Positions 3,028 through 27,277 are shown, numbered from the stretch's first letter. The stretch: DNA of 39,625 nucleotides from an uncultured Defluviitaleaceae bacterium (GCA_964449985.1 CAYVCG010000008.1:7805-47429), one strand, 5' to 3'. Notes: a model not told the origin generated them from the letters alone. A program made the numbers and translations.

Positions 3028-3226
3028 ACATACTATCCTTTCAAATTTGAAATTCCGTTCCAACATATACAAGCTCTGCAAAATATTTCTAGCAATAATC
3101 AGTCTTATTAATTATAACTGAAATTTAGATTTTGTCAACCAACAATATTTATGACTAAATTAAGCAATTCCGTCTTGTGCAAAAACCTTCTCCACGCTTT
3201 CACCAAAAAACATGCAAGTTCCGCCC

Positions 3227-6252: not shown

Positions 6253-6272
6253 AAAAATCCCCTCCCCGTAGA

Positions 6273-6312
6273 GAAAAAAACCGCTTTCGCATAATTATAT
6301 GCAAAAAGCGGT
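6273..6312 (-). terminator. Strong rho-independent terminator closing the multi-Hsp70 operon
   Basis: 8-bp outer stem accgcttt/aaagcggt (6280-6287 / 6305-6312) plus a 5-bp inner stem gcata/tatgc. On the minus strand it is followed by a 7-T run (6273-6279), immediately after the TPR gene stop (6315). Confidence 0.8.
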
Positions 6313-6314
6313 TG

Positions 6315-7487
6315 TTAAATCTCATTTTCTCGATATTTTTCCTTAAAGCGTCCTAAAACGTCTTTAAGTATAACCTGATATTCCTTTATCCTACCCATGG
6401 ATTTTTTTATTCTTGCATTTTCTAAACCCGCCTTCTCATTGGATGGCGATAGATCAAGCGCTTTGATTATTGCGCTGTTTGCCCGTGTCAAATCATAATC
6501 CATACGATAATACCTAGCAAGCCTTGTCCAGAGATCAACGCTGTTTTTATCCTGCATAAGTGCTTTTTCTATACAGCGTATTGCCGCAGGGATATTGTTG
6601 TAAGCAACATACACTTCTGCCTGTTTTTTAAGCAAATACTTGTCCTTGCAAGCGATTTTATCCAGTGTTTCAAGAGCCTTGTCATAAAATCTAAGCTTTA
6701 GATATACGTCGCAAAGCCTATACATATATTCCCATCTCTGAGTACTTGTCTCGGCAGCTTCAACAGCTCTTTCAAAATATGATATTGCTTCAAAATATCG
6801 CCCCGAGGAAAACACTAACTCACCATACATATAATAAACATCGCCTGCTTCTCCGTAATGCAGTTTTATCGTTTCGATTATTTTGTTAACACTGTCAAAA
6901 TCCTTATTAAGCAAATGCGCCTCAGCAATATGCAGCAAAAGCTTGTAGTCATGCGGCATCATGCCAAGCGCACGATTCAAGTATTCGATTGCTTCGCTAT
7001 AGCGCTCCATCTTTAGAAGCGTTATGGCAATGTTGTTAAGAAGTTGGGGATTTTCGCCATGTTCCAAGGCTTTTTTGTAATAGCTGTATGCTTTTTCCTC
7101 ATCGCCGTTATTGATGAGGTAGTCTCCGCGTTCCTTTAGTTTTTCCCATTCCTTGCGGTTTTCCCAAAGAGCTATTTCCTTGCGCAAATTCTCTATCTGT
7201 TCATTTGAAAAATAATCTATTAACGACAGAAATTGCGAAAGTTTACGGCTAAGGCTGGGAAAACCGCTTAAATCCTTAATCTTTGCTGCGATAAAGGAAA
7301 GCTTAAGCGCCCGGCTCACCCAGTCTATAAATTCGTCACACATAAAGTCGTCCACCGATTGCTTCCAATAATGGTAGCAATGATAAACAGCCTCTTCAAA
7401 CGAATATACGTTTACATTTGTCATCTTAAATCTATACGGCTTTGAAACCATATCCTGCGACATGCAGAGCAACATATTGGAAGCCAT
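6315..7487 (-). CDS. Tetratricopeptide-repeat (TPR) protein, last gene of the multi-Hsp70 operon
   Basis: Repeated 34-aa TPR-like units (GDEEKAYSYYKKALE, ERYSEAIEYLNRAL, GRYFEAISYFERAVE, RFYDKALETLDKI, NNIPAAIRCIEKAL, YDLTRANSAIIKALDLSP). The start is 42 nt downstream of the Hsp70-vWA stop. Confidence 0.85.
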   Translation of the reverse strand: MASNMLLCMSQDMVSKPYRFKMTNVNVYSFEEAVYHCYHYWKQSVDDFMCDEFIDWVSRALKLSFIAAKIKDLSGFPSLSRKLSQFLSLIDYFSNEQIENLRKEIALWENRKEWEKLKERGDYLINNGDEEKAYSYYKKALEHGENPQLLNNIAITLLKMERYSEAIEYLNRALGMMPHDYKLLLHIAEAHLLNKDFDSVNKIIETIKLHYGEAGDVYYMYGELVFSSGRYFEAISYFERAVEAAETSTQRWEYMYRLCDVYLKLRFYDKALETLDKIACKDKYLLKKQAEVYVAYNNIPAAIRCIEKALMQDKNSVDLWTRLARYYRMDYDLTRANSAIIKALDLSPSNEKAGLENARIKKSMGRIKEYQVILKDVLGRFKEKYRENEI

Positions 7488-7529
7488 TTAAACACCAACC
7501 CGAAAAAGCAGATGAAATCATAACCCCTT

Positions 7530-9608
7530 TTACAGCCTTATAAGCTCGGCTATGCTCATCGCTATATTGTCCAAAATATCATAGAACTTATCATTTAAAT
7601 CATAATATTTGCCGCTAGGCTTTGTCAACGGGTCATAAGCTTCTATGCTTTCTCTATCTTTTCTGGCCACAACGTATGTGGTGACGTTATTATCCATAAG
7701 CATATCACAAATATCTGCAACGTGCCTTCCGCTGTTTGTCGGAACATGAGGCGGCGCATCAGTTATTAGGATAAACATATTTTTCGTATCCGGCTCTGCG
7801 CCTTTGGAACGAAGCAAATCCACGCCGGTTTCCAGCGCATCCAAGGATGATTCCGGTATATCTCCTCCGTATGTCCTTGGTATATTTTTAACCTGCTTCT
7901 GGAACTTTTCTATGTCATCGGTAAAGTTATAAACGCTCGGCTTTTCCTTTTCGTTTAAATCTCCAAAGCCGATAAGCCCCAGCTTATAACCTGCTCCCTT
8001 GGAGTTTAGTATGTTGGAAAACTCTATCGCCCTGTCTTTAACGCCGTTTATATACGTATCCATACTGCCAGTTGTGTCTATAAGGAATACGATATTTACT
8101 TTGCCGCCCATTACTTTCATTTCTTCCCTCGGCGGCGGAGCAGATGTCTTTGTTCTGTCAAACTCTGCCCTTTCAGTTCTGCCTGTTTCCAAATCCTTAA
8201 CATAAACCTCAAACAGATTGTTTTCGTCTATAGCATAAGTTATCTCCAACTGAGTTGTGCCTTTAAGCCCTGTAAACGTTACGCTTCCGATATATTTTCT
8301 TTCAGCTTCATGGCCATCTTCCCATTGATAAACGTCTACGCTGACCATCGTAGCGCCAGACATACTGGCAAAGTTTGCATCGGAAAAGCTGCTGGGGATT
8401 GGGCTGCCCATCGGTATAATTGGTATAAGCCCGCGCTCCATCGTAGAGATATTAGTAACCGCTTCCGTTCCGAATATTTGGCGCGTTATCTGCCCTACCT
8501 TAACGTTGCTGTTTGGCAAATGTATCAAATAATTGTATATAGCGGCGCCCATGGCAACGCTTTTTGCAGGGTCTGTCGCACGGTACGGCTCTTTTAATAA
8601 TCCTGCCACCATACGTTTTACCATAGGTATAAGCGTTGAACCGCCAACAAGAATTACCTTTGAGATTTCATCAGCATCCTTGCCGGAGCGTTTTAACGCC
8701 TCCTCGACTATATCACGGCTTCTATCCACATACTTGCGGATCATCGCTTCAAATTCTTCTCGGGTTATCTCAAGAGATAAATTTTTCGGAACACCTTCAT
8801 GGATAATAAGCGGATGTATACGAACGGCTACTTTATTCGTGCCGGATAACTTTTTCTTTGTTTGTTCCGCTTCCTGCTTTAGCTTTTGGATGACGCGTTT
8901 CCGTTCGGAATTCTCAAGCGAATCCAAATCAATGTCATGCTGGGCTTTAAACTGCTCCTTCATCCATTTTATCAGCTCCGAATCAAAATCGTCGCCGCCA
9001 AGGCTCATATCGCCCACGTCGGACAATTCCTGAAAAATCTCCTGATCGTTTTCATCTTTAGAAACCTTTAAAACGCAAGCATCAAACGTTCCACCGCCAA
9101 GGTCATAAACCAAAAGCGTCTGGGCATAGCTCTGTTTAAAGCCGTATTCAATCGCTGCCGCCAAAGGCTCTGATAACAAATAAACCGTTTTAAAGCCGGC
9201 CATAAGCCCCGCTTGCTTTGTTGCAAAAATCTGCCTATCGTTAAAATATGCAGGATGGGTTATAACAACCTCGTCGAAAGTCTCCCCAGCTTGTTCCTCT
9301 GCCGCGGTTTTAAGCCGCTTTAAAATCTCAGAGCTTATTTCCTCAGGTGTTTTCTCCAGCTCACCTATGTTTATTTTTTCGCTGGAGCCCATAAAACGTT
9401 TGATAGAAATAACCGTGGTTTCCGGGTATATGATAGCGCCGGATTTCGCTTCGTTGCCCACAATAACGCCATCATTCGTATAGCTGACAACGCTGGGCAG
9501 AATTTCATCTGTCCCGTCAATTTTAACAACCTCCAGGCTGTCCTTTTTATCGTTATAAATAATCGCTACTGAGTTTGTTGTTCCCAGGTCTATGCCTAAG
9601 TAAGCCAA
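7530..9608 (-). CDS. Hsp70 (NBD plus beta-sandwich SBD) fused to a C-terminal von Willebrand factor A domain
   Basis: Hsp70 motifs GIDLGTTNS, LLVYDLGGGTFDACVL and ILVGGSTLIPMV. SBD-beta strand TQLEITYAIDENNLFEVYVKD. Then comes a short PPP linker and a vWA domain with MIDAS-type NIVFLIDTTGSMD (DTTGS at 8064-8078) and FILITDAPPH. I prefer the TTG start at 9608 (GGGGAGGG SD 5 nt upstream); the track start at 9722 would overlap the upstream gene by 77 nt. Confidence 0.88.
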   Translation of the reverse strand: MAYLGIDLGTTNSVAIIYNDKKDSLEVVKIDGTDEILPSVVSYTNDGVIVGNEAKSGAIIYPETTVISIKRFMGSSEKINIGELEKTPEEISSEILKRLKTAAEEQAGETFDEVVITHPAYFNDRQIFATKQAGLMAGFKTVYLLSEPLAAAIEYGFKQSYAQTLLVYDLGGGTFDACVLKVSKDENDQEIFQELSDVGDMSLGGDDFDSELIKWMKEQFKAQHDIDLDSLENSERKRVIQKLKQEAEQTKKKLSGTNKVAVRIHPLIIHEGVPKNLSLEITREEFEAMIRKYVDRSRDIVEEALKRSGKDADEISKVILVGGSTLIPMVKRMVAGLLKEPYRATDPAKSVAMGAAIYNYLIHLPNSNVKVGQITRQIFGTEAVTNISTMERGLIPIIPMGSPIPSSFSDANFASMSGATMVSVDVYQWEDGHEAERKYIGSVTFTGLKGTTQLEITYAIDENNLFEVYVKDLETGRTERAEFDRTKTSAPPPREEMKVMGGKVNIVFLIDTTGSMDTYINGVKDRAIEFSNILNSKGAGYKLGLIGFGDLNEKEKPSVYNFTDDIEKFQKQVKNIPRTYGGDIPESSLDALETGVDLLRSKGAEPDTKNMFILITDAPPHVPTNSGRHVADICDMLMDNNVTTYVVARKDRESIEAYDPLTKPSGKYYDLNDKFYDILDNIAMSIAELIRL

Positions 9609-9645
9609 AACGCCCTCCCCTTTCGTGTATGTGATTAACCAAAAT

Positions 9646-11283
9646 CTATGATATAATCGTCTTTTTAAACCTATCCGGCGCAAAGTTTTGTTTAAACCCG
9701 CTCGGTGCAATTTCCTCGACAAAGCCCAAATCCTCTACCATGCCTTTAACCAGACCGCCGTCTTCTTCCGCCATAAGCGTTATTTTAAGCTTAGTCTTTC
9801 CGCTTGGTCGCTCTGGCAAGCCCTTTATCTCAACATCGCCGATAAGCTTGCAGTTTTCAAAGCTGTCTTCTTTATCAATGCGCTCTAAAATTCTTAAATC
9901 AAACTCCGTCATATCGCTTGGCTTGTCTCCAGACAATGTAAATATAGAGTTTTTCTTAGCCAAAGCATAGGGTGTGCCACGCCTTATCATCGTGAAAAAT
10001 GATTTCCTTACTCCATTAGTAACTTCTAAGCCAATATCATGCGGAACAGTTACCTCAAATTCAACGGACATTTTTTCCGTTTCCATTTCCGGCTGGGATA
10101 AAAGCCCCATTTTCATAGCGGCGTAATACGTAGCACCGAGGGATATATCCAACGCCGGGCGTTCCGACGTATAAATCTTAGTTTCGTCATTGAATATGCC
10201 GATAAGCATATCCTTCACCCACGGCATTTGTGATGAACCGCCCTCCAAAAGCACCCTGTCTATATTATCAGGTATGAGCGCGCCTGTATACGTTTCCCGC
10301 AAGGCTTTTAATACAAGCTTTCTCGTCTTTTCTATAAAATCACCGATAAGCTCCTCAAACTGGTCTCTAGTTATGTTTTCAACAAAAGGCGGGATGCAAA
10401 ACGTAAACGGGATACGGAAGCTTTTAACCCCGGATAGTCGCTCCTTTGCTTCTCTGGCACGCAAGGCAAGCTCTATTTGGTTTTCTATTGATATGTCTTC
10501 ACGTTCCTGCCCTGTTTTGTTTTTTATGAACTCAAAGCATTTGTTCATCAAAACGTCATCTATATTATCGCCGCCATGATAAGCTTCTCCGCCCTCGCTT
10601 ATTACTTGCAGTTTAACATGTTTATCGGTTTTTTCTAACACATGGAATATCGTTATATCCAGCGTTCCGCCGCCGAAATCAAACACCATGATTTTTTCGC
10701 CATCACTTAGCTGATGCCGGAAGTTATAAGCCAAAGCAGCAGCCTTTGGTTCTTCTATAAGGCAAATGAGATTATCCGAAAGCCCGGCTATTTCACAAGC
10801 CCGCATCGTGGCTTTTTTCGCCGCATCATCAAAGTCATACGGCACGGAAACCACAAGCCCGGCTATCTCCGCTTTTGGGTTTAGCCCTTGGCAATGCTCC
10901 ACAAGCTCACAAAGTATCTTTGCCGAAATATCCTCAGGCAAATATGCCTTGCCGTCTATTATTATCGTTTCATTCGTTCCCATTTTGCGCTTAATAGAGC
11001 GCACAGTTGTTTCCGGATAAATCTTAATGGAACGGTATGCTTCTTCACCGATAACCCATTCGCCGCCGGATGGTTCGTCCTCATCTTTTCTGTATTGAAC
11101 AACAGAAGGCAAGGGCACCTTTCCAAAGCCGTTGCTTATATCTATCGGCTCGCATCTTTTGCCCGTATTGTCCCAATAGCTGATTATGGAGTTGGTCGTG
11201 CCTAGGTCTATGCCAAGGATATACCACTCTTCCGGCAGGGAACCTTTTTCTTCAATACTCCGTTTATATTCCTCCCAATTCAT
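9646..11283 (-). CDS. Hsp70-family ATPase, lidless paralogue
   Basis: GIDLGTTNSIISYW, IMVFDFGGGTLDITIF, LLEGGSSQMPWV. C-terminal SBD-beta (GLPERPSGKTKLKITLMAEEDGGLVKGMVEDLG) with no helical lid. 545 aa. Confidence 0.9.
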   Translation of the reverse strand: MNWEEYKRSIEEKGSLPEEWYILGIDLGTTNSIISYWDNTGKRCEPIDISNGFGKVPLPSVVQYRKDEDEPSGGEWVIGEEAYRSIKIYPETTVRSIKRKMGTNETIIIDGKAYLPEDISAKILCELVEHCQGLNPKAEIAGLVVSVPYDFDDAAKKATMRACEIAGLSDNLICLIEEPKAAALAYNFRHQLSDGEKIMVFDFGGGTLDITIFHVLEKTDKHVKLQVISEGGEAYHGGDNIDDVLMNKCFEFIKNKTGQEREDISIENQIELALRAREAKERLSGVKSFRIPFTFCIPPFVENITRDQFEELIGDFIEKTRKLVLKALRETYTGALIPDNIDRVLLEGGSSQMPWVKDMLIGIFNDETKIYTSERPALDISLGATYYAAMKMGLLSQPEMETEKMSVEFEVTVPHDIGLEVTNGVRKSFFTMIRRGTPYALAKKNSIFTLSGDKPSDMTEFDLRILERIDKEDSFENCKLIGDVEIKGLPERPSGKTKLKITLMAEEDGGLVKGMVEDLGFVEEIAPSGFKQNFAPDRFKKTIIS

Positions 11284-11306
11284 TTACCTTCACCTCAAAC
11301 TATATA

Positions 11307-12884
11307 TCAAACAATGGACTCAGTATCAAACACAAACTCACGCTCATAATCCGATGATGGGAACAACTCCCCAAAGCCTAAATCCCGCACCTTCGCCTTT
11401 ATAACATTACTACCGGAAAATCCGATGGATATGGAAAGCCTCGTTACCCCGGCAGGCCTATCCGGCAAACCATCCAACGCTAGGCTCTTAATCGGCGTCA
11501 TTGTGCCGGATTTATCCCTTTTAAACATTTGTATATGAGCCGCAGGGCTTGTTGGCTCTGTAAGTATAAACTGCTTCGGGGGATGAGTTTGCCACCAAAA
11601 TGTACTACTCTCAACAATCGGGGTAAAACGCTCCCTGTTGTCCCGCAGTATTTTAAATCCAATGTCATAATCAATCCTGTTTTTATCCTTTATCAAGAAC
11701 TTTTTGCCGGAAAACGCACAAAGCTCCGTTGCAGCGGCAACGCTTGCACCCTCGGCTGTAACACCTTTTGGATTTTTATAAATTGCTATTTCCGATTCAG
11801 GGAATGCTTCTGAAACAACCTCTCTGGCCCATAACATCTCGAAACCGCCTCCGACGCAAATAACAGACGATATATCTTTAATATCGATACGTTTGCCATC
11901 AGATGTTTTGCGAGCCTCCATCAAAAAAGCCTCAACGCATTCCTTTAATGGACCGACAATCTCTTGCGCCATATCATGCGAAATACTTGCCTGAAACGGG
12001 GGATAAGCAAAATTGTAATAAATTTTAAGCGGCTTCGACTTTATATCCTTTCTAAACAACAAATCCTTATGCTGATACGAAAATATTTCAAGCTGTTCCC
12101 TTTGCCGCTGATCAAGCCGCTCTGGCGGTATATTAAAATGCCCGCAGTATATGTTCTGAAACATTTGAGAAACAACTTCATCAACAATATCTGTTCCTAG
12201 CGATTTATCAAACAAAAATGAACGACAGTCCACACTGACATTTCCATCATCTTCGGGGCAAATATCATAAACACCAGCCCTTAATTCTCTTGCGCCAAAA
12301 TCTATTATCATTACTGTTTCTTTTTTTATAGCTCTATCAAAATAAAACCTGTTTAAAACACATTCCCTATCATCCAAAAAACCGAGCAACGGCTTTTCAT
12401 AACCTGCACTCTTTAAAACCGCCGAAAGCTCGGCTTCGGCCTCCTTGCCCAAATAAGCAGGAACACTAACAGCAATCCCTGCTATCTCTGCCTTAGGATT
12501 TATATTTTTGCAGTTTCCGACGAGCTCTTTTATATACAAGCCCAAAATGGATGTAACACTAACAGGCTTTCCGGAAACATCAACATACTCACCCAACCCC
12601 AGCTTTTGAACCAACGACAGAATCGTTATATCTTTGCTCCCAGAGCGATTGGCCATGGCATATTCCCCAAAAACCCATTCCTTAGTATCCGCAACATATT
12701 GCATAACCGTTGGAACAGAAGGCTTTCCATAGCCGCCGGATATATCAATAATCTCAGGGGCGCTTTGATTAAGATCAAAATAAGCGATAGCAGACGTTGC
12801 GCTTCCGATATCAAGGCCAAGGATAAAATAATTCTCTTGCCTTATGCCGTTTTTAAACAGCTCCGTAAACTTTCGCCTGCTCAT
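11307..12884 (-). CDS. Hsp70-like protein with degenerate nucleotide-binding motifs (predicted pseudo-ATPase)
   Basis: Same overall layout, including SBD-beta (GLPDRPAGVTRLSISIGFSGSNVIKAKVRDLG). Phosphate-1 reads GLDIGSATSA instead of DLGTTNS. Phosphate-2 reads IIDFGARELRAGVY instead of DxGGGTxD. The adenosine motif reads CVGGGFEMLW. Confidence 0.8.
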   Translation of the reverse strand: MSRRKFTELFKNGIRQENYFILGLDIGSATSAIAYFDLNQSAPEIIDISGGYGKPSVPTVMQYVADTKEWVFGEYAMANRSGSKDITILSLVQKLGLGEYVDVSGKPVSVTSILGLYIKELVGNCKNINPKAEIAGIAVSVPAYLGKEAEAELSAVLKSAGYEKPLLGFLDDRECVLNRFYFDRAIKKETVMIIDFGARELRAGVYDICPEDDGNVSVDCRSFLFDKSLGTDIVDEVVSQMFQNIYCGHFNIPPERLDQRQREQLEIFSYQHKDLLFRKDIKSKPLKIYYNFAYPPFQASISHDMAQEIVGPLKECVEAFLMEARKTSDGKRIDIKDISSVICVGGGFEMLWAREVVSEAFPESEIAIYKNPKGVTAEGASVAAATELCAFSGKKFLIKDKNRIDYDIGFKILRDNRERFTPIVESSTFWWQTHPPKQFILTEPTSPAAHIQMFKRDKSGTMTPIKSLALDGLPDRPAGVTRLSISIGFSGSNVIKAKVRDLGFGELFPSSDYEREFVFDTESIV

Positions 12885-12910
12885 TTCGCATACACACCCC
12901 TTTTACAAAA

Positions 12911-14848
12911 CTATCTTGCAGCGATAACATTTGCTCTTATCAAAACCCTTTCGCCGCTTTTATAACCCCGGTTCATAAGCTTTATAATCTCGCCTTTTTT
13001 ATAATCTTCGTTTTTCTCCGCCATAAGCACCTCATGTTCCTTTGCATTAAACATATCATGGGCCACAGGCGCTATTGGCGTTATGCCGTTTATTTTCAAT
13101 ATATTGTCAAGCTCTGCCGCCTTATTATAAATAAAATCAGCAAAACCCGATACATTTTCGTCTTCGCTCGCTTTTAACAGCGAAACCGAATAATTCATAA
13201 TCTCTTCAAAAGTGGACATTTCAAATAAAACGTAATCTTTTACAAAACCGTCAGTCTTTTTGACCACTTCGTCGATCTTTCTTTCATATGCCTTTTTCTG
13301 CTTTTCCTTATGCTCCAAAGCCAAATCACAGTTTTCTATATCAGCAAGCATACGTCGAATAACAAATGAACCGCGCCTATCATCTCTTGAAAGTGCAGCA
13401 AGCCGCAAAACAAGCTCTCCCATGCATTGACTAGCCTGGTTTTTTATCTCGCTCTTTTGCGTATCACTTATGGCCAATTCATCATTTTCCTTAGAATAGC
13501 TGACATGGGCATACGCATCAGACTCTGCCTTAAATTCGTTTTTGTTTTCATCAATGCTTTGGATCTTTATAGCAACCGTCTCTGCCACACCCGTTATTAT
13601 CTCAGCTTTTTCGCTGGATGTAAGCGCTTTATTAATATCCTCTTCGTTATAATAATCTAATATGGATTTAAACACGCCGTTCATCTCATCAGCCATAACA
13701 ATGGCATGAGAAAACACCTTTTTTATTTCATAATATTGTTTTATCGAATTATTTTTCTTTACAATCCGCTCCAACGTGTTTATTATCTCTTTTTCCATAT
13801 GCTTGCAAAAATCATCCATACGGCCTTCCAGAGAAAGCGCAAACCCTTCAAATACAGAAATCTTTATAAAAGAAACACCACTGGTATGAGAAAGAAGGCT
13901 TTCCGAAAACTGCTCGCGGCTTTGAGCAAGGCTTGTCTGCCCTTCATCCGCCTTGCTTTCCCGCGCGGCCTTTAGCCTTGATATTATATCAGCAGTTTCT
14001 TTGCCATATCGCTGATAAGCTTCTCTAAGAAGATACAGCATCTGTCTTATAATCGAAACTGTGCTTTCATTCTCGATTCCGTTTTCCAAATAGCTTTCCA
14101 AAACCCCTGCCTGAACCTTTATTATTGCACCCAATATCTGGTATTCTTCGTTTAGCATAGTGATATAATGATCAACGGACTTTCTTTTCTCAAGGTCATT
14201 TATATCTGTCACGGCTCTTTCGGTTGTATTGCAATAAATAGCATAAAATTCCTCAAAGCAATTCTTTTCTATGCATGAACCCATAAGATTAATAAGCTCT
14301 ATACCGTTGCTCAAATCAACAGACTGCAAAAACAAACGCCTCGCATGATACACAACGTCTTTTTGCTTTTCCATCTTAAATTTATAACAGACGGAATCAA
14401 AGGCCTTGTCAAAAGATTTTAAAGCCTTGGCTATAATCTCTCTTTTTTCAATGGAAACCGGATTTGAGCCATCCGCTTGTGGGCGCTCTTCAAAAGCTTT
14501 TAGGCGTGATACGATTATAGAATAAAGCCCGTCATAAATATTCTTTATTTGTATATCAGAAAACTCCAATGGATTTTCCTCATAAACACTTACAGCGGAT
14601 GCATAACAGCCCATAAGCTTACAATAATAATCATAAATACTTTCGTCATAAGCGCTTAGCTTTGAATCAGACATGGATGCCGAATATATTTTATCGCTAA
14701 TAACCTTTTTAATAAGGCGCAATAACTCGTCAAGGCTATCCGCCGCATAATCATCAATAAATGCGGCGGCGGCGTTCCATTTTTTTAATATTAAATTTTC
14801 AGCACTACCGGCATTCCTTGCCCTAACGGACGACTTTGCCATTTCCAC
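12911..14848 (-). CDS. Large helical protein with a C-terminal GrpE-like nucleotide-exchange domain
   Basis: The last ~110 aa (about 12914-13250) match the GrpE four-helix/beta-domain pattern: INGITPIAPV.HDMFNAKEHEVLMAEKNEDYKKGEIIKLMNRGYKSGERVLIRANVIAAR (compare GrpE G.e.i...G..FDP..HEAv...e.....v..v...GY....rvlRpA.V.V). The preceding ~530 aa have no counterpart in ~190-aa housekeeping GrpE. The start is GTG 14848 or ATG 14842. Confidence 0.75.
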   Translation of the reverse strand: MEMAKSSVRARNAGSAENLILKKWNAAAAFIDDYAADSLDELLRLIKKVISDKIYSASMSDSKLSAYDESIYDYYCKLMGCYASAVSVYEENPLEFSDIQIKNIYDGLYSIIVSRLKAFEERPQADGSNPVSIEKREIIAKALKSFDKAFDSVCYKFKMEKQKDVVYHARRLFLQSVDLSNGIELINLMGSCIEKNCFEEFYAIYCNTTERAVTDINDLEKRKSVDHYITMLNEEYQILGAIIKVQAGVLESYLENGIENESTVSIIRQMLYLLREAYQRYGKETADIISRLKAARESKADEGQTSLAQSREQFSESLLSHTSGVSFIKISVFEGFALSLEGRMDDFCKHMEKEIINTLERIVKKNNSIKQYYEIKKVFSHAIVMADEMNGVFKSILDYYNEEDINKALTSSEKAEIITGVAETVAIKIQSIDENKNEFKAESDAYAHVSYSKENDELAISDTQKSEIKNQASQCMGELVLRLAALSRDDRRGSFVIRRMLADIENCDLALEHKEKQKKAYERKIDEVVKKTDGFVKDYVLFEMSTFEEIMNYSVSLLKASEDENVSGFADFIYNKAAELDNILKINGITPIAPVAHDMFNAKEHEVLMAEKNEDYKKGEIIKLMNRGYKSGERVLIRANVIAAR

Positions 14849-14909
14849 AATTCCCCTTGCTTATGTTTTGCAACCGCTTATTAATTCAATTCTAACTAAA
14901 TCAGTCGCT

Positions 14910-16589
14910 TTATGAATACAGTTCATCAACGGAAAGCTCCGTTGTTACGCCGTCAAGGCTTGTGCTCTTTGCCATAACTTTAAGCATATTGTCTTGGCTA
15001 ATATGAAAAACAATCTTGACCTTTTCCTGACCCTTAGGCCCTTGCGGGATGCCGCGCAAAGATGTACCAGCAAGGCGTTTCATTCCCTCTTGGTTTACGA
15101 ACTCTGTCTTGCCGTCTAGCGCTGGTATCGCGTTTTCATAAACAACTATAGCCATGCTCGTTACATTATCAAAATTAGTCGTCAAAAGCTCATCTGCTTC
15201 AATCGTAAGGCCATCCTTAGGGATATCCAATCCCTGAGACACTATCTTCATGAACCGTCTTCCTGCGATTTCTAGCCCAAGCGGATGGATCGTCTTTTCA
15301 TGGACAACCGGCCCTTTAACAGTCGGCATCATTATCATATTACAATAATACGCCGCTCCTTGGGATATGCTAAGCGCAGGGCTTATCTTAGATTTAAACG
15401 GCTCTTTGCCAAACTTTTCGGATATTCTTTCGCCAACTGAGTTTATAGACGAACTGCCTCCAACAAGGAATATCTCGTCAACCTCGTCTGCCTTTATATT
15501 GGCAGCCTGCAAACAGTTGTCAATACATGAAAGGGTAATTTCGATAATATCGTTTAATGTTTTGCCGTTAAATTTATCAAAAATCTCCGGCTTATCACCA
15601 AGCTGGTTTACGCGGGCATGATTCATAAAATCTTCCCTTGTTATTTCCATATTTATGTTTATAATCTTTGGCTCTTGAATAAACGGAGCAAGCGTTACCT
15701 TCGTGCTCTTAGCCTGAGAAAGGCGTTCTTTTGCCTGATTTGCCACCTGCTGCAAACGCACCAAAGCGACCTTCTTTTGGCGTTTAGAAACACCGTCATC
15801 AACATCTTCATTAAAAAGGTCTATCTCATTATTAGTGAGCTTTTTAAACTCCTCATAAATCATATCCATAATGATTTTGTCTATATCATTACCGCCAAGG
15901 TCATTATCGCCATATGTGCTTAATATGGAGATACTCGGTTCATTAGCTTCGTCCGCCTTTATTTGGAGAATGCAAGCATCAAATGTTCCGCCGCCGAAGT
16001 CATAAACCAAAACCTTTTTGTCGCTTGTCTCGTTTATCGCATAGCTTATTGCGGCAGCTGCCGGCTCTAGCCTCAAATATATATTTTCTTCATCAAAACC
16101 GGCCAAAAGAGCAGCCTGCTTTGTCATTTGCTTTTGCTTGTCCGTAGAGTTTGCAGGAACGGTTATAACACAGCCGGAAAATTCTCCGGAAATATTAAGC
16201 TCCTCTTGAGCATATTCATCAGCCTTTTGCTTTAAATAACCCAAAATCTCGCCGGCAATCTGCTCCGGCGTAAAAACATGCTCTGCCTCGTCCACAACAA
16301 CAGTTATCTTTTCATCAGATCCGAGAAGTCTTTTTATAGACAAAACGGTGCTTTGGGGGTAAATAATGGCAGCTTCTTTAGCCTGAACTCCAAATATTCT
16401 GGAAAGCTTCTTTTCATCCTCCGGATCGGTTTCAAACTGGATAGCCGTTGGGAAGATGTTGCTACCGTCGATGGGTATGGTTTGCGCCTCACCGTCTTTA
16501 AAATTATAAATGCTGACGACAGAGTTTGTCGTTCCAAAATCAATACCGAGATACAGGCCTCTTTCCAAATCAAGCCCTAGCGTTCCCAT
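14910..16589 (-). CDS. Hsp70-family ATPase, lidless paralogue
   Basis: GIDFGTTNSVVSIY, VLVYDFGGGTFDACIL, FLVGGSSSINSV. SBD-beta (HPLGLEI..., GIPQGPKGQEKVKIVFHISQDNMLKVMAKS). The protein ends 20 aa after the last beta strand. AAGGAGGG SD. Confidence 0.9.
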   Translation of the reverse strand: MGTLGLDLERGLYLGIDFGTTNSVVSIYNFKDGEAQTIPIDGSNIFPTAIQFETDPEDEKKLSRIFGVQAKEAAIIYPQSTVLSIKRLLGSDEKITVVVDEAEHVFTPEQIAGEILGYLKQKADEYAQEELNISGEFSGCVITVPANSTDKQKQMTKQAALLAGFDEENIYLRLEPAAAAISYAINETSDKKVLVYDFGGGTFDACILQIKADEANEPSISILSTYGDNDLGGNDIDKIIMDMIYEEFKKLTNNEIDLFNEDVDDGVSKRQKKVALVRLQQVANQAKERLSQAKSTKVTLAPFIQEPKIININMEITREDFMNHARVNQLGDKPEIFDKFNGKTLNDIIEITLSCIDNCLQAANIKADEVDEIFLVGGSSSINSVGERISEKFGKEPFKSKISPALSISQGAAYYCNMIMMPTVKGPVVHEKTIHPLGLEIAGRRFMKIVSQGLDIPKDGLTIEADELLTTNFDNVTSMAIVVYENAIPALDGKTEFVNQEGMKRLAGTSLRGIPQGPKGQEKVKIVFHISQDNMLKVMAKSTSLDGVTTELSVDELYS

Positions 16590-16622
16590 AAAAAATCCCT
16601 CCTTAAAACATGTTTTATATCA

Positions 16623-19319
16623 CTATAAAATCCAGCTCTTAATACGCGGCTTTTCCCTAAGCTTTTCTGTAATTATGCCCTCAACCATATCATATTTAAA
16701 CAGGCGTTCATAAATAAGGGCGTTGTTAATAACAAAAAAAGAATCATCTTTTATTTCAGACAGTTTCATATCAGAATTCTCAACAACACTTTGCTTGGAA
16801 ACGATGCTGCCCGTTTCCATTTCTTCACTGAAATAATACGTTATTTTTTCACCGTAAAAATGCGTCACATGGGCAAAATACAGCCCAAACCTTAAATAAC
16901 GCATCCTTTTGCTCCGAAACTCGGGCTCGTTGTCTGTTTTGTAATAAAGCTTTATTATTTTATCAGGAAAACCATGGTATATAAAAGGCTGATTCTTTTC
17001 TATATACGCACTTGTGAATTTTTTGTCTTTTATATGTTTTAATACCGGGAAAATAAAGGCGTCGTCTTCGCATAGCTTCACAGCTTGTTTTATAATCTCA
17101 TCAGACTTAAACGTTGTTATGCCATACCGTGCATATACATGGCAAAGAGCGTATGCAATAAAGCTATCTCCGCTTCCAAAGAACATCCTTTCCATAATTT
17201 CAATCGTTTCATATTCCGGCTTTATATTGTTTATTATTATTTCATAAACGCAAAAAGCAACAAATTCCTCAACAAGCGTATTTTTCGAGTTCATCTCAAA
17301 CATACGTTGGAACACCTTTTGAGAACCTTTATCCATCTGGTGCATAACTATTGCATTTTTAAGAATTATTTCGTCAAGCCCTTGCTCTGCGATAGACATA
17401 TGCGACAGCGCACGGCTTAGCTCTTGCCATTCTTCCTGGCTTCCACGATAGTGGGAAAATATGATTTCCACAAGCGTTTTGTCATACCAGCTTTTTAAGA
17501 CAAGCTCATATGCAACGTTTGCAATGTCTCTATCATAAATATTCTTCACAGCGATTTGTTTAAGCGCATAGAATAGATTTCTGTCAGATATACATTCGGC
17601 TTTTTTAACTATAAGGCTGACAGCTTTTTTATAATCATTCGCATTTATATAAGCTATAAGCATTTGCTCTATATAATTATCATTAAGTTTATTTTCATCA
17701 ACATCCTTATAATACGAAACGGCTTTTGAATAAGCTCCTAAAGATGCATAATAATTCCCTGTTGCTGCACTAATGAGCATCTTAAATGATGCAGACAAGT
17801 CCGCCCTTGCCACAGCAAGCTTAAAAACCCCAATGCTCTCCTCCGGCAAAACCTCCAGCGACATATAGTGCTTTGAAAGCGCGACTATAAGCTCTGGGCT
17901 TGTCATGCCTTTCCCAAAAAAACGTTTATATAGCTCGATATCTGCATTCTCCACAAGCCTCACAGCTGTATACGGCGTTTCTACCAAAGACCTCTGGTCA
18001 GAATCCAAAAACCAACAGGAAAAGCTGGGGCCAGAAGCAATTATAACCTTCGACTTGCCGGTAATGGCATATTTATTCATGTCCCTCCGCTCCGGCTCAG
18101 ACACCCAAATATACTTTGCACTGTCGTTTTCAATAAGAACCCTGAATTTAAACAAATCCTCCCACAAAATCTTTTCTGCCAAGTCCATAAGGCTTTTATC
18201 AGAAGCAGTAACAGCTTCTGATAGATAAAACCTGTAAATACTGTTATAATACCTGCCTGATTCACCCTTTTTTAAGCTTTCAACCGCAAAATCAATAATC
18301 CTGTCTTTATATGCATCAAGCAATTCAAAATTCTTTGGCTTTGTTATTACAAGATGATACGCAAACGGAAGCAGCATAGCCTCCAAATATCCGGTTTTAA
18401 AAAACATATCCAGTGTATAACGGCTTATGTTTTCAACATTGTTATTTGCGGCGGATTTTATAAGCATGTTATAAATATTCGGCAGTTCAATCTGTTTTAG
18501 CTCTGCTTCTTTATAAAAATAAAATGCCGATGACGAATAATCCATCCGCTCCATAAGAGCAGAACAAATACTAGCCAAAACCTCATCATGAGGATACAGC
18601 CTATAAACCTCTTCCACAAGCTTTGGATAAACATTAAAATAAGCCGCCATTGCATATTTAAATTTAAAAACAGCTTCAGAAATATCAAGCTTTTTATTAA
18701 GCGCCCATCTCACGAACCCAAAAAACATCCCGTCATCCACTTTAGAAACGTCTACCGGGGCGTTATTAAAACAATCAAGAAGATATGCAAACATCATTGC
18801 GCTTCGTTCGCCTTTTGCATAAGCCTTCGCAAACAGTAATACAGCTCCGTTATAATCACCATATTCATAAGCTGATACCGCCATAAGCATATCAAACAAT
18901 CCGTTATGGGTATTATCACGAAAATCATTCATGGTTTTCTGCTGTTTCTCAAAAGCGCGGATTTTACCAAGGCGTATGTTATAAAACCCATTAAGAAACG
19001 TATACAGCATAAACCTCTGTGGTTCGTTATTTTTAAAATAGTTTTTGCTGCCTTTTAGAAGATCAAGCAACTGCTTTGCATTATCGAAATTTTCCATCTC
19101 TATGCTAAGAAAGACATCGATGAAATAATGATCAAAACATGCAAAATTTGTTTTGAACACAGAACGGTTTATATGATATCCCTTATAAAGATGGGCTTTA
19201 TCACCCTGAGCCTTATACAAAAGCCAACAGCGCATAGCGACGGCAATAGCGCTCTCGCTTGATTTGTCTATATTAAATTTTTGCTCTATATCATCCAATT
19301 TGTTTTGCAGAACATCCAT
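16623..19319 (-). CDS. 898-aa alpha-helical repeat (TPR-like) protein with a beta-rich C-terminal ~130 aa, function unknown
   Basis: Clean ORF with GGAGG SD. Recurrent TPR-like helices (GDYNGAVLLFAKAYAKGE, GAYSKAVSYYKDVDE, NDYKKAVSLIVKKAE). No enzymatic motif recognised. Sits 33 nt upstream of the first Hsp70. Confidence 0.7.
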   Translation of the reverse strand: MDVLQNKLDDIEQKFNIDKSSESAIAVAMRCWLLYKAQGDKAHLYKGYHINRSVFKTNFACFDHYFIDVFLSIEMENFDNAKQLLDLLKGSKNYFKNNEPQRFMLYTFLNGFYNIRLGKIRAFEKQQKTMNDFRDNTHNGLFDMLMAVSAYEYGDYNGAVLLFAKAYAKGERSAMMFAYLLDCFNNAPVDVSKVDDGMFFGFVRWALNKKLDISEAVFKFKYAMAAYFNVYPKLVEEVYRLYPHDEVLASICSALMERMDYSSSAFYFYKEAELKQIELPNIYNMLIKSAANNNVENISRYTLDMFFKTGYLEAMLLPFAYHLVITKPKNFELLDAYKDRIIDFAVESLKKGESGRYYNSIYRFYLSEAVTASDKSLMDLAEKILWEDLFKFRVLIENDSAKYIWVSEPERRDMNKYAITGKSKVIIASGPSFSCWFLDSDQRSLVETPYTAVRLVENADIELYKRFFGKGMTSPELIVALSKHYMSLEVLPEESIGVFKLAVARADLSASFKMLISAATGNYYASLGAYSKAVSYYKDVDENKLNDNYIEQMLIAYINANDYKKAVSLIVKKAECISDRNLFYALKQIAVKNIYDRDIANVAYELVLKSWYDKTLVEIIFSHYRGSQEEWQELSRALSHMSIAEQGLDEIILKNAIVMHQMDKGSQKVFQRMFEMNSKNTLVEEFVAFCVYEIIINNIKPEYETIEIMERMFFGSGDSFIAYALCHVYARYGITTFKSDEIIKQAVKLCEDDAFIFPVLKHIKDKKFTSAYIEKNQPFIYHGFPDKIIKLYYKTDNEPEFRSKRMRYLRFGLYFAHVTHFYGEKITYYFSEEMETGSIVSKQSVVENSDMKLSEIKDDSFFVINNALIYERLFKYDMVEGIITEKLREKPRIKSWIL

Positions 19320-19347
19320 GCATTTGCCTCCGGGCGGTTACAGCGTT

Positions 19348-20568
19348 TTACGCTTCAAAATATAAGCCTCCGATAAAAACTTTTAACACCTTTTTAAACG
19401 GCTTTTCATCAACATACGCTTTTACGGTTATAAATGTTTCTAAAACAGGCTGTTTTTTTAGCGCGAATTGCGCTGCCGCCAGCCCTGTTAGCCGGACAGA
19501 AAACGGTATCTCTGCATAACCACTCACCAAATACCGCTTTCCCTCAAACTTTATGAAAGTATCCTCCGCCAAAACCTCCAGCATCATATCTTTAAACGTA
19601 TTGTTAATAACGATTATTCTTCCCATGTCTTCAAAACCAAATGACTGGCGGGATAAAGACAAATCAAGCGGATTCTCTTTGCACACATTAACGAATATAT
19701 TCGTATTAGTGTTAACGAGCCTTAACGTTGCTGATGCAAATTTTTGCCGCAAAAGATTCGGATAAATAATATAGCTTGCTTCAAAAAAACCCGCCTCGTC
19801 AAAATCCGCTGCTGTTATACTATCAGTCATAAGCTTTATCCACGGAGTATCTTTCGAGTTTATAATTTCAATCCGCTCATCAAGATAGCCCCAGCCTTTA
19901 AGCCTGAGCGGTATAACGCCTGTTACGGCGTCTGTTTCTGCCGGCCTTATCCTTGTTGACAATCTGTTTTCAATGACGGATATTTCGGCCTTGTTTTTTA
20001 GGCCATTTAATACAAGAAAATTATCAATCGCCCGTTCTTTGTTCGGATCTCTGGCAAAATGCTCATACATATCCATATGCTCATAATTCATGCTTAACAG
20101 CCACATCAAAAATTCCTTCTGCGAAAACAGCTTCCGTGATTCTACAGGGCTTTTCTTTACATAAAGCAAAAAGTCTTTAAGGGTGCCCAACCGGCTTCCA
20201 TCTTTTGCTATAACGGCTGGTGGGATAATTTTTATTAAAACAGGGATTATTGCCTCTCCGCCGTTTGATGTTATTAATGCGCTTGTATGGATTGTATCGC
20301 CTTTTTTATAAATGTCCAAATTAAATCTATATGTTATTTTAATATTATTTCCACGAAATTCCGTCGGAGAAAATTCCAGCCCATGGGAGTTGGAGGTTAT
20401 TGTTCCAAAAAGCTCACCCCCGCCTATATTGGACACACAAAATCCACCCTCAAAGCACTCCGATGTCTCGATGGATATATTATCGGTATCGACTTGTATT
20501 ACAGGCAAAGGGTATTCAAATTGTTTTAGTATATCCGATTTTTTATTATCAACTTGTTTTATATCCAT
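19348..20568 (-). CDS. 406-aa protein of unknown function with an N-terminal Ig-like/beta-sandwich signature
   Basis: Clean ORF with AAGAAGG SD. The N-terminal segment FEGGFCVSNIGGGELFGTITSNSHGLEFSPTEFRGNNIKITYRF resembles PapD/ASH-type beta-sandwich modules. No signal peptide or TM segment seen. Confidence 0.65.
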   Translation of the reverse strand: MDIKQVDNKKSDILKQFEYPLPVIQVDTDNISIETSECFEGGFCVSNIGGGELFGTITSNSHGLEFSPTEFRGNNIKITYRFNLDIYKKGDTIHTSALITSNGGEAIIPVLIKIIPPAVIAKDGSRLGTLKDFLLYVKKSPVESRKLFSQKEFLMWLLSMNYEHMDMYEHFARDPNKERAIDNFLVLNGLKNKAEISVIENRLSTRIRPAETDAVTGVIPLRLKGWGYLDERIEIINSKDTPWIKLMTDSITAADFDEAGFFEASYIIYPNLLRQKFASATLRLVNTNTNIFVNVCKENPLDLSLSRQSFGFEDMGRIIVINNTFKDMMLEVLAEDTFIKFEGKRYLVSGYAEIPFSVRLTGLAAAQFALKKQPVLETFITVKAYVDEKPFKKVLKVFIGGLYFEA

Positions 20569-20612
20569 ATGAAAAACCTTCTTTTAAAAAACAAACGTTT
20601 GTACCCAAGGCA

Positions 20613-21962
20613 TTATCGACCAAGCATCTTGAAGTTCATATCCATTTGCTCTTTTATGCTCATTATTGCATTCATTTCAGACCTGCTTTGCTCTTGCATT
20701 TGGGCAAACACGCTTTGCAGCCGTTCGATAAGCTCTGAGTTGGATTTTATAATTGAATCAAGATTTTGGCGCAAAGATTCATTTATGCCATTATAAGCCT
20801 CTTGCACCTGAAAATCAATTATCCTGCCCATTCCTTCGCCAATCTGCGATGTTATTTCTTTCAATGTCAGCTCGTATTGCTGCAAACTGTTCTCTAAAGC
20901 AATTTGGTTCGTTTTTAAATATTTGAGCTGCTGCTCGACTTCATCGTTTCTTGCCATATAGTTCGAATTACTGGTATACAAGGCATCCGCCGTCTTCTCC
21001 AGGCTTGCTACCTGTTTTGAAAGAGATGAAAAATAATCACCCATGCTGCCAGACATCTTCGCAAACCCACCATCAACAATATTTGATAGCTTCTCAACGC
21101 CCTGAATGGATACGTTTAGCGAAGCAAGCGTCTTGTTAAAGTTATCCTGCCCTTTGACAGCTTCATTGATTGTATCGCGCCATTTTTTAATAGGCTCATC
21201 CAATATTTCTTTATGATTTAACACAGATGTCATAGCGTTTTCAACGTTTTCTGTCATTGCCGCCATGGATTTTCCCATCGCCTCTCCAAGCTCAGTGCCC
21301 AGCATACTTATGGTCTCTCTAAGGCCGGACGTTTGCGCCTGAATAGAATTCTTTATATCCACCCTAAGCAGATTAATAGCCGAAACAGGATCCTTACCAA
21401 AAAACTTGTTGATTTCTATTTCCATAAAGTTGGACATTTCGAAAACTATCTTGCTTTCAACAGCTGTATAATCCAAGAATAAGCCAACAACCTTTATGAC
21501 GACAAACAAAAATACGCAAATCGCAGCTACGGTAGCTTTTTCATTCACCGTTAGCGTTAAAATAATCCCTATTAGGAGTATGCTTTTTTCAAACGTGTCC
21601 AAAACACCTTTATAGCTTTTTAAGTTAAGCAAAAGAAAGCGCGATCTTCCCAACTGCCGCTCAACAACATCTCTGGGAGACAGATGAACAACACCTTTTT
21701 CCACAACGGAAACGTAAAACTTAACGACCTTGCTGAAAAACCCAAATTTTATATTTTCTAATTCCTTTTTTTCGTTAATCTCTTTAGACTGCAACAAATA
21801 TGTGGCATAAATATTCTGATAAGCGATGAATAACGCGATTCTAAAGATAAGAGCCAAAAGAGAAACGCCTATAAGGCATTGCAGCCCCATCTGAGCGCCA
21901 TAGTCATATATCCCTATTGATGTATAAAACTCTGTATAAAATACCGGTATTTGAAATGGCAT
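20613..21962 (-). CDS. 449-aa membrane-anchored coiled-coil protein, first gene of the operon
   Basis: About three hydrophobic helices (LQCLIGVSLLALIFRIALFIA; ILLIGIILTLTV; VAAICVFLFVVIKVVGLFL). These are followed by ~270 aa of heptad-like, Q/E/S/N-rich helical sequence. GGAGG SD 7 nt upstream of the ATG. Confidence 0.75.
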   Translation of the reverse strand: MPFQIPVFYTEFYTSIGIYDYGAQMGLQCLIGVSLLALIFRIALFIAYQNIYATYLLQSKEINEKKELENIKFGFFSKVVKFYVSVVEKGVVHLSPRDVVERQLGRSRFLLLNLKSYKGVLDTFEKSILLIGIILTLTVNEKATVAAICVFLFVVIKVVGLFLDYTAVESKIVFEMSNFMEIEINKFFGKDPVSAINLLRVDIKNSIQAQTSGLRETISMLGTELGEAMGKSMAAMTENVENAMTSVLNHKEILDEPIKKWRDTINEAVKGQDNFNKTLASLNVSIQGVEKLSNIVDGGFAKMSGSMGDYFSSLSKQVASLEKTADALYTSNSNYMARNDEVEQQLKYLKTNQIALENSLQQYELTLKEITSQIGEGMGRIIDFQVQEAYNGINESLRQNLDSIIKSNSELIERLQSVFAQMQEQSRSEMNAIMSIKEQMDMNFKMLGR

Positions 21963-22005
21963 TAATAAACCTCCAAAAAAAACTTCTGTTTATATTTCGG
22001 AATAT

Positions 22006-22034
22006 ATTATACCATCTTTAATTAATGCTGTATA
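22006..22034 (-). promoter_or_regulatory. Predicted sigma-A promoter of the multi-Hsp70 operon (extended -10)
   Basis: The minus strand reads TATACA, then 17 nt, then TGgTATAAT. The -10 is at 22006-22011, the TG at 22013-22014 and the -35 at 22029-22034. It lies ~45 nt upstream of the ATG at 21962. Confidence 0.55.
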
Positions 22035-22072: not shown

Positions 22073-22101
22073 TTGACAAAGGTTGTGCGCTAAGCTAAAA
22101 T
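22073..22101 (+). promoter_or_regulatory. Predicted sigma-A promoter for the divergent 408-aa gene
   Basis: Consensus TTGACA (22073-22078), a 17-nt spacer, then TAAAAT (22096-22101). It lies 45 nt upstream of the ATG at 22146, which has an AAGGGGG SD. Confidence 0.6.
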
Positions 22102-27264: not shown

Positions 27265-27277
27265 AGTTATCACCTTG

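Follow-up and report, generated by a model that had tools for sequence, protein, structure and literature searches.

Bacterial Hsp70 chaperoning normally depends on one lidded DnaK, one J-protein and a small GrpE. Task-dedicated Hsp70s are also known, as in HscA-HscB, HscC-DjlC, and the yeast ribosome-associated complex (RAC, Ssz1-Zuo1) with Ssb, each defined by a J-protein; within RAC, Ssz1 is an atypical, non-hydrolyzing Hsp70 with a truncated substrate-binding domain, and it partners active Hsp70s. Hsp70-type proteins have been described as well in the GTPase-centered GAP1-N2 conflict systems of Firmicutes and Actinobacteria, together with GrpE, TPR or DnaJ-FNIII proteins (Kaur et al. 2020, PMC7159879), as lidless DnaK-like domains fused to EACC1-protease modules (PMC12642450), and in CoCoNuT CnuD, with Hsp70-like and HEAT proteins (PMC11090510). 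Here we analyze a nine-gene operon at positions 6315-22034 of a 39,625-nucleotide (nt) stretch of DNA, the window, from an uncultured Defluviitaleaceae bacterium. Its genes, g1 to g9, all lie on the minus strand and are numbered 5' to 3' along it. The locus departs from the bacterial Hsp70 norm on every count: lid, paralog number, a pseudo-ATPase, a vWA fusion, GrpE length, and J-protein. We see about an even chance that it encodes a constitutively expressed, membrane-tethered, scaffold-organized Hsp70 machine whose target is one specific cellular client, not the whole proteome.

The second and third genes encode two halves of one ancestral protein, DUF5717. The 406-residue product of g2 (19348-20568) is the N-terminal module, matching positions 12-287 of Pfam model PF18984 (127.5 bits, E 5.6e-37), and the 898-residue product of g3 (16623-19319) is the remainder, matching positions 354-850 of the same model (116.6 bits) as well as PF18983 (97.2 bits). 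Judged by these two models, g2 and g3 jointly cover one unsplit protein, and the combined scaffold comes to about 1,300 residues. The closest relative of g3 is 52% identical. An earlier note, made from the sequence alone, had listed a beta-rich 406-residue protein and an 898-residue helical-repeat protein. Both descriptions are apt, but the two are not separate families, since Pfam matches and the mapping onto an AlphaFold model identify them as parts of a split DUF5717.

AlphaFold2 models were built for two proteins, the unsplit DUF5717 of Blautia schinkii (1,179 residues, from an 89-sequence alignment) and the g3 product of the window. The Blautia model, with a predicted local distance difference test score (pLDDT) of 88, shows, in order, a beta-sandwich, a small helical domain, a beta-sandwich, a linker at 293-295, an alpha-solenoid, a small beta-domain, a second alpha-solenoid, a beta-sandwich, and a helical hairpin. 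The g3 model (pLDDT 90) has the same architecture from the first solenoid on: a TPR-type superhelix (residues 1-388), a small beta-domain (391-454), a second superhelix (461-775), a beta-sandwich (776-847), and a helical hairpin (860-897). The fold of g2 consists of two ASH/PapD-like beta-sandwiches on either side of a small helical domain, and some 110 C-terminal residues of g2 have no counterpart in unsplit DUF5717. Residues 1-290 of g2 map to residues 1-286 of the Blautia model, and g3 maps to profile positions 293-1174; the gene split therefore sits at the low-confidence domain linker, 293-295. Foldseek matches of the models to the PDB are at the level of domains only. For the beta-sandwiches these are ASH/PapD-like domains from proteins of the ciliary central apparatus, the SPD-2 domain of CEP192, and PDB entry 2qsv; for the helical parts they are the TPR superhelices in Ski3, Ctr9, IFT-A subunits, Naa15, and OGT. 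The same searches found no enzyme fold in the DUF5717 models, a viral structure library searched with the scaffold returned generic repeat proteins only, and PDB sequence searches with g1, g2, g3, and g5 gave no specific match.

A scan with a DUF5717 profile, restricted to one genome per species, confirmed 197 relatives. We fetched 80 loci (cited by handles such as L001), called open reading frames (ORFs) in them, and assigned these with phmmer. Some 55 loci from Lachnospiraceae share one simple arrangement, in which an unsplit DUF5717 gene (about 1,180-1,200 residues) is followed by a DUF5716 gene (about 415-435 residues) and a TPR gene (about 260 residues); carriers of this trio include Blautia, Butyrivibrio, Anaerocolumna, Diplocloster, and Eubacterium sp. 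14-2. In Defluviitaleaceae and related "Clostridiales" metagenome-assembled genomes (MAGs), DUF5717 is split and the gene order of the window recurs. All nine genes are present in L007, g3-g9 in the Defluviitaleaceae MAG locus L001 (to which L002 is identical), g1-g4 in L085, and g3-g6 in L086, and four more loci (L010, L011, L018, and L020) keep the order up to the end of the contig. Locus L002 came from sequencing run SRR10912417, and the g3 protein of the window occurs in the run with the neighboring number, SRR10912418. A metagenome search anchored on g8 added 114 relatives, 76-82% identical and mostly from termite gut; four of these loci (L095, L135, L154, and L166) run from g2 or g3 to g9, and eight contain g4-g8 within the limits of the fetched flank.

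Because each of the nine has orthologs, in the same order, in other genomes, g1 to g9 are real genes, and the conserved synteny of the cluster is clear both in Defluviitaleaceae-type genomes and in metagenomes. The earlier note had taken the cluster for a self-contained nine-gene operon. It is not a fixed unit of that kind: the nine genes represent one of the forms taken by a modular system built around the older three-gene core of DUF5717, DUF5716, and TPR protein. Nor do homologs of the 898- and 406-residue proteins always accompany several lidless Hsp70s and a long GrpE, since in Lachnospiraceae they pair only with DUF5716 and the TPR protein. The nine-gene form belongs to the Defluviitaleaceae-like lineage, and adds to the core three intact lidless Hsp70s, a 645-residue GrpE protein, a vWA domain, and a coiled-coil protein with two transmembrane segments. 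The split DUF5717, the DUF5716 identity of g6, and the three-gene core across Lachnospiraceae are all new relative to that note.

Architecture varies within the expanded form. In three loci, g1-g2-g3 is followed by unrelated genes, namely UvrD in L009, PAS-GGDEF in L013, and unassigned genes in L019. Three others (L005, L016, and L023) stop after g6, and many contigs have only g7 and g8, flanked by 5-10 kb of unrelated sequence. In a Defluviitaleaceae MAG (L014, 6648-12727), three opposite-strand genes separate g2 from g3, a PAS-GGDEF gene follows g3, and no match to g1 is seen, so the two parts of the scaffold can also lie apart. In termite-gut relatives the g7-g8 interval, or the g4-g5 interval, may contain small genes on the same strand, from one to six of them (L093 7505-9991, L108 7789-9948, L090 6333-10013, L086 4802-5909, and L017). 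The insertions between g7 and g8 were considered as a coherent cassette, an idea abandoned on finding them heterogeneous (PNPOx-like, NUDIX, DUF6483, and unknowns) and unrelated between loci. Locus L001, which has neither g1 nor g2, instead shows upstream a helix-turn-helix (HTH) regulator and a NikA-like protein (348-1076), then about 850 nt with no long ORF, which may be the trace of a rearrangement or mobile element. Eleven Lachnospiraceae loci have a protein of about 400 residues, matching no family, between the TPR gene and valS (for example L041 14623-15825, L049 14405-15658, L003 15744-16913, and L168 11002-12180). Possibly the minimal system has this protein as its fourth component; a relation to g1, also considered, was not found.

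DUF5717 is a large family. An exhaustive HMMER search returned 3,126 clusters at 50% identity, 1,334 of them with E no greater than 1e-30, and the members of the top 150 clusters are nearly all 1,180-1,200 residues long. It is frequent in Blautia-type Lachnospiraceae of gut metagenomes, with up to 7,687 sequences in single 90% clusters. In 25 Blautia-type loci the trio has a conserved context, with sigK and the genes for a MiaB-like protein, RNase J, MltG, an O-methyltransferase, and a U32 peptidase to one side; the opposite side encodes a solute-binding protein and a two-component system. Pairwise identities of DUF5717, DUF5716, and the TPR protein correlate with those of RNase J at r = 0.85-0.86, the value that RNase J gives with the U32 peptidase. 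Vertical inheritance of the trio is indicated because its divergence tracks RNase J in the way that one housekeeping gene tracks another. Median identity in these loci is 57-62% for the trio against 82-84% for the housekeeping genes, and the trio thus fits a vertically inherited, faster-evolving core locus. Conservation within the expanded form is uneven: ortholog identity is 70-82% for g4, g7, and g8 (74-82% for g4, 70-78% for g7) but 22-45% for g1, g2, g3, g5, g6, and g9.

Four products belong to the Hsp70 superfamily, scoring above the PF00012 cut-off of 20.6 bits. They are g4 (559 residues, 14910-16589; 243 bits, E 5e-72), g6 (525 residues, 11307-12884; 35 bits), g7 (545 residues, 9646-11283; 197 bits, E 5e-58), and g8 (692 residues, 7530-9608; 318 bits, E 2e-94). 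None reaches the NCBIfam equivalog cut-offs for DnaK (TIGR02350 and NF001413; 648-822 bits), the scores being 348 for g8, 248 for g4, 202 for g7, and 27 for g6. All four stop at or right after the beta-subdomain of the substrate-binding domain (SBD-beta), except that g8 runs on into its vWA domain; like the minimal DUF5716 proteins, they lack the helical lid and one segment of DnaK subdomain IB. Motifs were compared in an alignment to Escherichia coli DnaK. In this alignment g4, g7, and g8 retain the phosphate-1 motif GIDLGTTNS, K70, E171, DxGGGTxD, and the adenosine motif, and their catalytic motifs are intact. The ATPase motifs of g6 are degraded, with GLDIGSATS and IDFGARELR in place of GIDLGTTNS and YDLGGGTFD, although g6 still aligns to solved DnaK structures in the PDB over residues 5-500 or so, that is, over the nucleotide-binding domain (NBD) and SBD-beta. 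The minimal Lachnospiraceae DUF5716 has lost both its ATPase motifs and subdomain IIB. The earlier note was right to call g6 a degenerate Hsp70 but missed its family, DUF5716: the model PF18980 (DUF5716_C, cut-off 34.7 bits) scores it at 86.1 bits. The same model gives g7 26.2 bits, below threshold.

Short C-terminal motifs link several of these proteins. GFGE(L/M)(F/Y)P, near the C-terminus, is common to g6 (as GFGELFP), g7, and the minimal DUF5716, and g7, which also has the C-terminal motif DLGF.E..PSG in common with DUF5716, is an active paralog of that family. The acidic tail of g4, TELSVDELYS (14913-14942), is kept as TELxVDELY(x)-COOH in 13 orthologs, even where the locus has six genes and no g9. 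The vWA domain of g8 (residues 505-656, nt 7641-8096) scores above threshold, at 41.9 and 37.9 bits (PF00092 / PF25106). Its putative MIDAS-like (metal ion-dependent adhesion site) signature, DTTGS...GGD...TDAPP, was recognized by eye.

The remaining products are a GrpE protein, a TPR protein, and a membrane protein. g5 (645 residues, 12911-14848) has a C-terminal GrpE domain (residues 511-642, nt 12923-13318; PF01025, 50.3 bits against a cut-off of 25.8), the sole domain to recur in its orthologs (10 of 10). It is not the housekeeping GrpE, since it scores just 16-28 bits against NCBIfam GrpE equivalogs with cut-offs of 137-266. The N-terminal 500 or so residues are helical, fall in no known family, and gave no informative match in the PDB; a PilZN match in g5, seen in one of 10 orthologs, was discarded as spurious. 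g9 (390 residues, 6315-7487; TPR families, E down to 1e-23) is a homolog of the 260-residue TPR protein of the trio (phmmer E 1e-8 to 1e-14), with an extra non-TPR region of about 110 residues at its N-terminus. g1 (449 residues, 20613-21962) has two transmembrane segments predicted by a hydropathy scan, near residues 24-49 and 137-169, and a coiled-coil-like helical tail of about 280 residues; the same scan predicted none in the other eight proteins. Matches of g1 are to generic coiled coils only, among them the chemoreceptor cytoplasmic domain, the ZorA tail, and apolipoproteins, and orthologs 22-29% identical lie upstream of g2 in 11 loci. Pfam, NCBIfam, and a motif scan found no J-domain, DnaJ match, or HPD motif in the nine proteins, and no DnaJ or HrcA family occurs among the genes of the window. 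The product and domain calls of the earlier note (Hsp70 for g4, g7, and g8, weakly for g6; GrpE for g5; vWA for g8; TPR for g9) were all reproduced with Pfam and NCBIfam.

The layout is that of a real nine-gene operon. Recounting reproduced every ORF coordinate of the earlier note and the spacers from g1 to g9 exactly (44, 28, 33, 61, 26, 23, 37, and 42 nt), as well as its observation on Shine-Dalgarno sites, which are clear and purine-rich in eight of nine genes and weak in g9, where there is just GGGTTGGTG. The start codon of g5 is GTG. That of g8 is the TTG at 9608, and not the end of the mechanical ORF at 9722, because 9608 is what fits the DnaK alignment (MAYLGIDLGTTNS against MGKIIGIDLGTTNS). 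About 44 nt 5' of g1 there is a sigmaA-type promoter on the minus strand (22006-22034), with -35 TATACA, a 17-nt spacer, and the claimed extended -10, TGgTATAAT. At the other end, the hairpin and T7 terminator that were said to close the block are present at 6273-6312 (minus strand), where folding gives a 14-pair hairpin (6280-6312) followed by T7 (6273-6279). The folded stretch of 65 nt (6256-6320) has a total energy of -24.7 kcal/mol, a second, downstream hairpin included, and terminator-like sites in the scanned region are no commoner than chance (18 observed, 17.5 in shuffled sequence). A second minus-strand promoter-like site (7599-7628; TTGACA-18 nt-TATGAT, 11 of 12 matches) is embedded in the 3' end of g8, some 110 nt 5' of g9, and g9 could be separately transcribed from it. 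GC content and skew of the operon are the same as those of its flanks, and no Rfam family or tRNA was found within the window.

Many Lachnospiraceae loci likewise have a conserved element upstream of DUF5717, TTGCGC or TTTACA, about 17 nt, and TGTATAAT, so that promoters in both the window and the Lachnospiraceae loci are sigmaA-type with an extended -10. In about 25 Blautia-type loci the trio has as its divergent neighbor a gene for SigK (292 bits, cut-off 252; L029 7641-8267, minus strand). The sigmaA-type promoters argue against sigmaK or sigmaE control notwithstanding this neighbor, and sporulation control deduced from sigK adjacency was rejected on the same ground. Membership in a heat-shock regulon was rejected also: a search allowing up to three mismatches found no CIRCE operator, and the single CtsR-like match is at chance level and distant from the operon.

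The other genes of the window are housekeeping genes: fabZ, accC, accD, accA, and those for rubrerythrin, PcrA, and an AddA-like helicase. Divergent from the operon, a plus-strand gene (22146-23372) with its own promoter-like site (22073-22101) encodes a 408-residue DUF4272 protein, its N-terminal 180 residues unassigned, that is absent from all related loci. Beyond it lie a 1,287-residue AddA-like helicase-nuclease (UvrD plus PD-(D/E)XK; 23446-27309) with no AddB-sized gene adjoining, a 203-residue ORF without family match (27278-27889) that overlaps the start of the AddA-like gene, and, after both, a PcrA/UvrD helicase (27974-30220). Elsewhere in the window, two tandem genes encode cyclophilin-type prolyl isomerases (1119-1868 and 1930-3081), the second with an N-terminal extension of about 185 residues, and another (3227-4276) encodes a 349-residue protein with an N-terminal zinc ribbon and a DUF2628 domain, and no NCBIfam match.

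In the machine that we propose, g2 and g3 would together make up a large platform in which ASH-like beta-sandwiches are combined with two TPR superhelices. The pseudo-Hsp70 g6 would be the ancestral partner of this scaffold, likely a non-hydrolyzing holder or adaptor like Ssz1 in yeast RAC, and g4, g7, and g8 would perform ATP-driven binding and release, reset by nucleotide exchange through the GrpE domain of g5. Capture of partners or clients may fall to the TPR protein g9 and to g8 with its vWA domain, C-terminal peptides (VDELY of g4, GFGELFP of g6 and g7) may dock on TPR surfaces, and g1 would anchor the assembly in the membrane. Such a machine could have arisen when one lineage split its scaffold and gained g1, an active Hsp70 with an exchange factor (g4 and g5), and a second active pair (g7 and g8). 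Beyond the established domain content, folds, motif states, DUF5717 split, gene order, vertical inheritance of the core trio, and lack of a J-domain, heat-shock operators, and effector domains, we infer that there is a single complex, how the peptides dock, that the assembly is tethered to the membrane and expressed constitutively, and what kind of client it has. Several points weigh against the proposal. Canonical Hsp70 cycles require a J-protein, yet neither J-domain nor HPD motif is present; the varied architectures among termite-gut relatives (g1-g3, g1-g6, or g7-g8 alone, and inserted genes) weaken the idea of an obligate complex; the fast evolution of the non-ATPase parts, 22-45% identical against 70-82% for the Hsp70s, would suit a conflict system too; and the strong promoter-like site ahead of g9 bears on the predicted single transcript for g1-g9. 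More far-reaching, and put forward tentatively as a rather improbable whole, is the idea of a J-protein-free, scaffold-organized bacterial Hsp70 network, in which DUF5717 would recruit the pseudo-Hsp70 and active lidless Hsp70s via their C-terminal peptides as an independent counterpart of the eukaryotic EEVD-TPR arrangement, with the core a conserved Lachnospiraceae machine.

A nucleoside triphosphate (NTP)-dependent conflict role, anti-phage or stress-suicide, in which lidless Hsp70s would detect proteins that are foreign or misfolded, vWA and TPR parts would serve as sensors or adaptors, and g1 would be the effector, is in our judgment unlikely, though kept alive by the fast evolution of the non-ATPase parts and by the modularity of the locus, with its small inserted genes in termite-gut relatives. 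ATPase, vWA, and TPR combinations, and Hsp70 with GrpE and TPR, recur in predicted conflict systems (PMC7159879), protease-effector defense modules carry fused lidless DnaK-like domains (PMC12642450), L001 has its HTH and NikA-like genes upstream, and g1 weakly resembles the ZorA tail. Yet Pfam and NCBIfam reveal no nuclease, protease, TIR, pore, or other effector family in the nine proteins, there is no GTPase, MoxR, or McrBC partner, and PADLOC-DB 2.0 gave no confident match to the component proteins, its best (PDC-M61B, E 3e-10) being partial and due to Hsp70-fold similarity and the remainder coiled-coil or TPR noise. A scan of viral contigs and a search of plasmids found no relatives. Four GenBank records from human feces labeled "UNVERIFIED: Bacteriophage sp." do encode DUF5717 (MT835486.1, MT835988.1, MT837190.1, and MT835719.1). 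The one of these that was looked at, MT835486.1 (L168), reads MgsA-DUF5717-DUF5716-TPR-400 residues-ValS, with valS frameshifted; the MgsA-trio-ValS order equals the chromosomal order in L048 and L049, and the record therefore looks like a misfiled bacterial contig rather than a genuine phage copy. Mobile-element genes are lacking in the window, as the earlier note had said, and its suggestion of an anti-phage function gains little support from these searches; on the PADLOC, viral-contig, plasmid, and "phage"-record results we rejected placement of the locus among defense systems. What favors a cellular client over a conflict role is that inheritance is vertical, the context housekeeping, and the promoters sigmaA-type, and that no effector is present.

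Less probable again is a machine serving sporulation or morphogenesis of the cell envelope, for instance by assembling a spore- or wall-associated structure in Lachnospirales. Many members of Lachnospiraceae and Defluviitaleaceae, the families that carry DUF5717, are spore-formers, which counts for this idea, as do sigK beside the trio in some 25 Blautia-type loci, spoIIAA-spoIIAB-sigF-spoVAA 7 kb away in L003, the membrane protein g1, and the LD-carboxypeptidase and NlpC/P60 hydrolase genes downstream of the operon in the window. The upstream promoters, however, are vegetative, not sigmaE/K-type; sigK adjacency is confined to one subgroup, and MgsA, an aminotransferase, or valS adjoins the trio in other genera. 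The envelope-themed neighborhood in which the earlier note had seen a clue is not conserved: the LD-carboxypeptidase, NlpC/P60, and DUF4272 flanks occur in no related locus. That the operon is a rearranged or duplicated housekeeping dnaK-grpE set serving general folding is scarcely credible, and was already disfavored. It has Hsp70 and GrpE domains, and three of the Hsp70s are catalytically intact, but their DnaK scores (200-348 bits against 648-822) and that of the GrpE fall far short, the lid, dnaJ, hrcA, CIRCE, and CtsR box are all wanting, and the genes are obligately linked to DUF5717 and DUF5716. These features bear out the claims that the locus is distinct from housekeeping dnaK and that its Hsp70 and GrpE proteins are a dedicated set. 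A canonical dnaK is expected elsewhere in the genome because a passage in PMC11019930 reports dnaK in 98.9% of bacteria.

Knowledge of the client of the proposed Hsp70 machine would give function to two widespread families, DUF5716 and DUF5717, and could reveal how Hsp70s are driven and targeted free of J-domains. If the more far-reaching idea of a J-protein-free network is true, the three-gene core would be a so far unnoticed, conserved cell-biological machine of Lachnospiraceae, including the Blautia of human-gut samples. The locus fits no named system, and the earlier note had recognized none: PADLOC and literature searches gave no match. DUF5717 and DUF5716 are Pfam families without function. 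Literature searches for DUF5716, DUF5717, or their Pfam accessions turned up no relevant paper, and those on Hsp70/vWA/GrpE/TPR themes no description of this system.

Its closest likenesses are partial. The GAP1-N2 systems have Hsp70 with GrpE, and sometimes a second, NBD-only Hsp70 and a TPR protein, but DUF5717 and DUF5716 are no part of them, and their GTPase and FNIII-repeat protein do not occur here; Pfam and NCBIfam find no GTPase, FNIII, or DnaJ family in the nine proteins, which sets the locus outside that group. MoxR-vWA pairs and the Bacteroides Bat operon (in part PMC7159879) likewise join an ATP-driven remodeler to a MIDAS-bearing vWA domain and TPR. Here, though, an Hsp70 takes the place of the MoxR AAA+ ATPase and itself carries the vWA domain as a direct fusion, and no AAA+ family was found in the cluster by Pfam or NCBIfam, so the locus is not one of these pairs. 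EACC1-protease fusions and CoCoNuT CnuD resemble it in having a lidless or degenerate Hsp70 with helical repeats, outside general folding, but the operon has no protease, EACC1, McrB/McrC, or HEPN partner. An acidic g4 tail (VDELY) beside the TPR superhelices of g3 and the TPR protein g9 recalls the eukaryotic EEVD tails and their TPR co-chaperones (Hop, CHIP, Tom70); the motif here is not EEVD, and binding of tail to TPR is something we infer. A passage in PMC7688965 describes a Hop ortholog as absent from bacteria.

With canonical DnaK-DnaJ-GrpE the operon shares the Hsp70 NBD and SBD-beta with intact motifs (g4, g7, and g8) and a GrpE-type domain (g5). It differs in having four paralogs, all without the lid and a subdomain IB segment, in a GrpE protein that at 645 residues is three times the usual length and carries a new 500-residue N-terminal region, and in lacking a J-protein and HrcA/CIRCE control, its genes being linked instead with a very large scaffold, TPR proteins, and a vWA domain. 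RAC offers a closer parallel in one respect, in that g6 might partner g4, g7, and g8 as Ssz1 partners active Hsp70s. HscA-HscB, HscC-DjlC, and RAC, however, each have a J-protein, none being found here, and none of the three is known to have a DUF5717-type scaffold, a vWA fusion, or a GrpE of its own.

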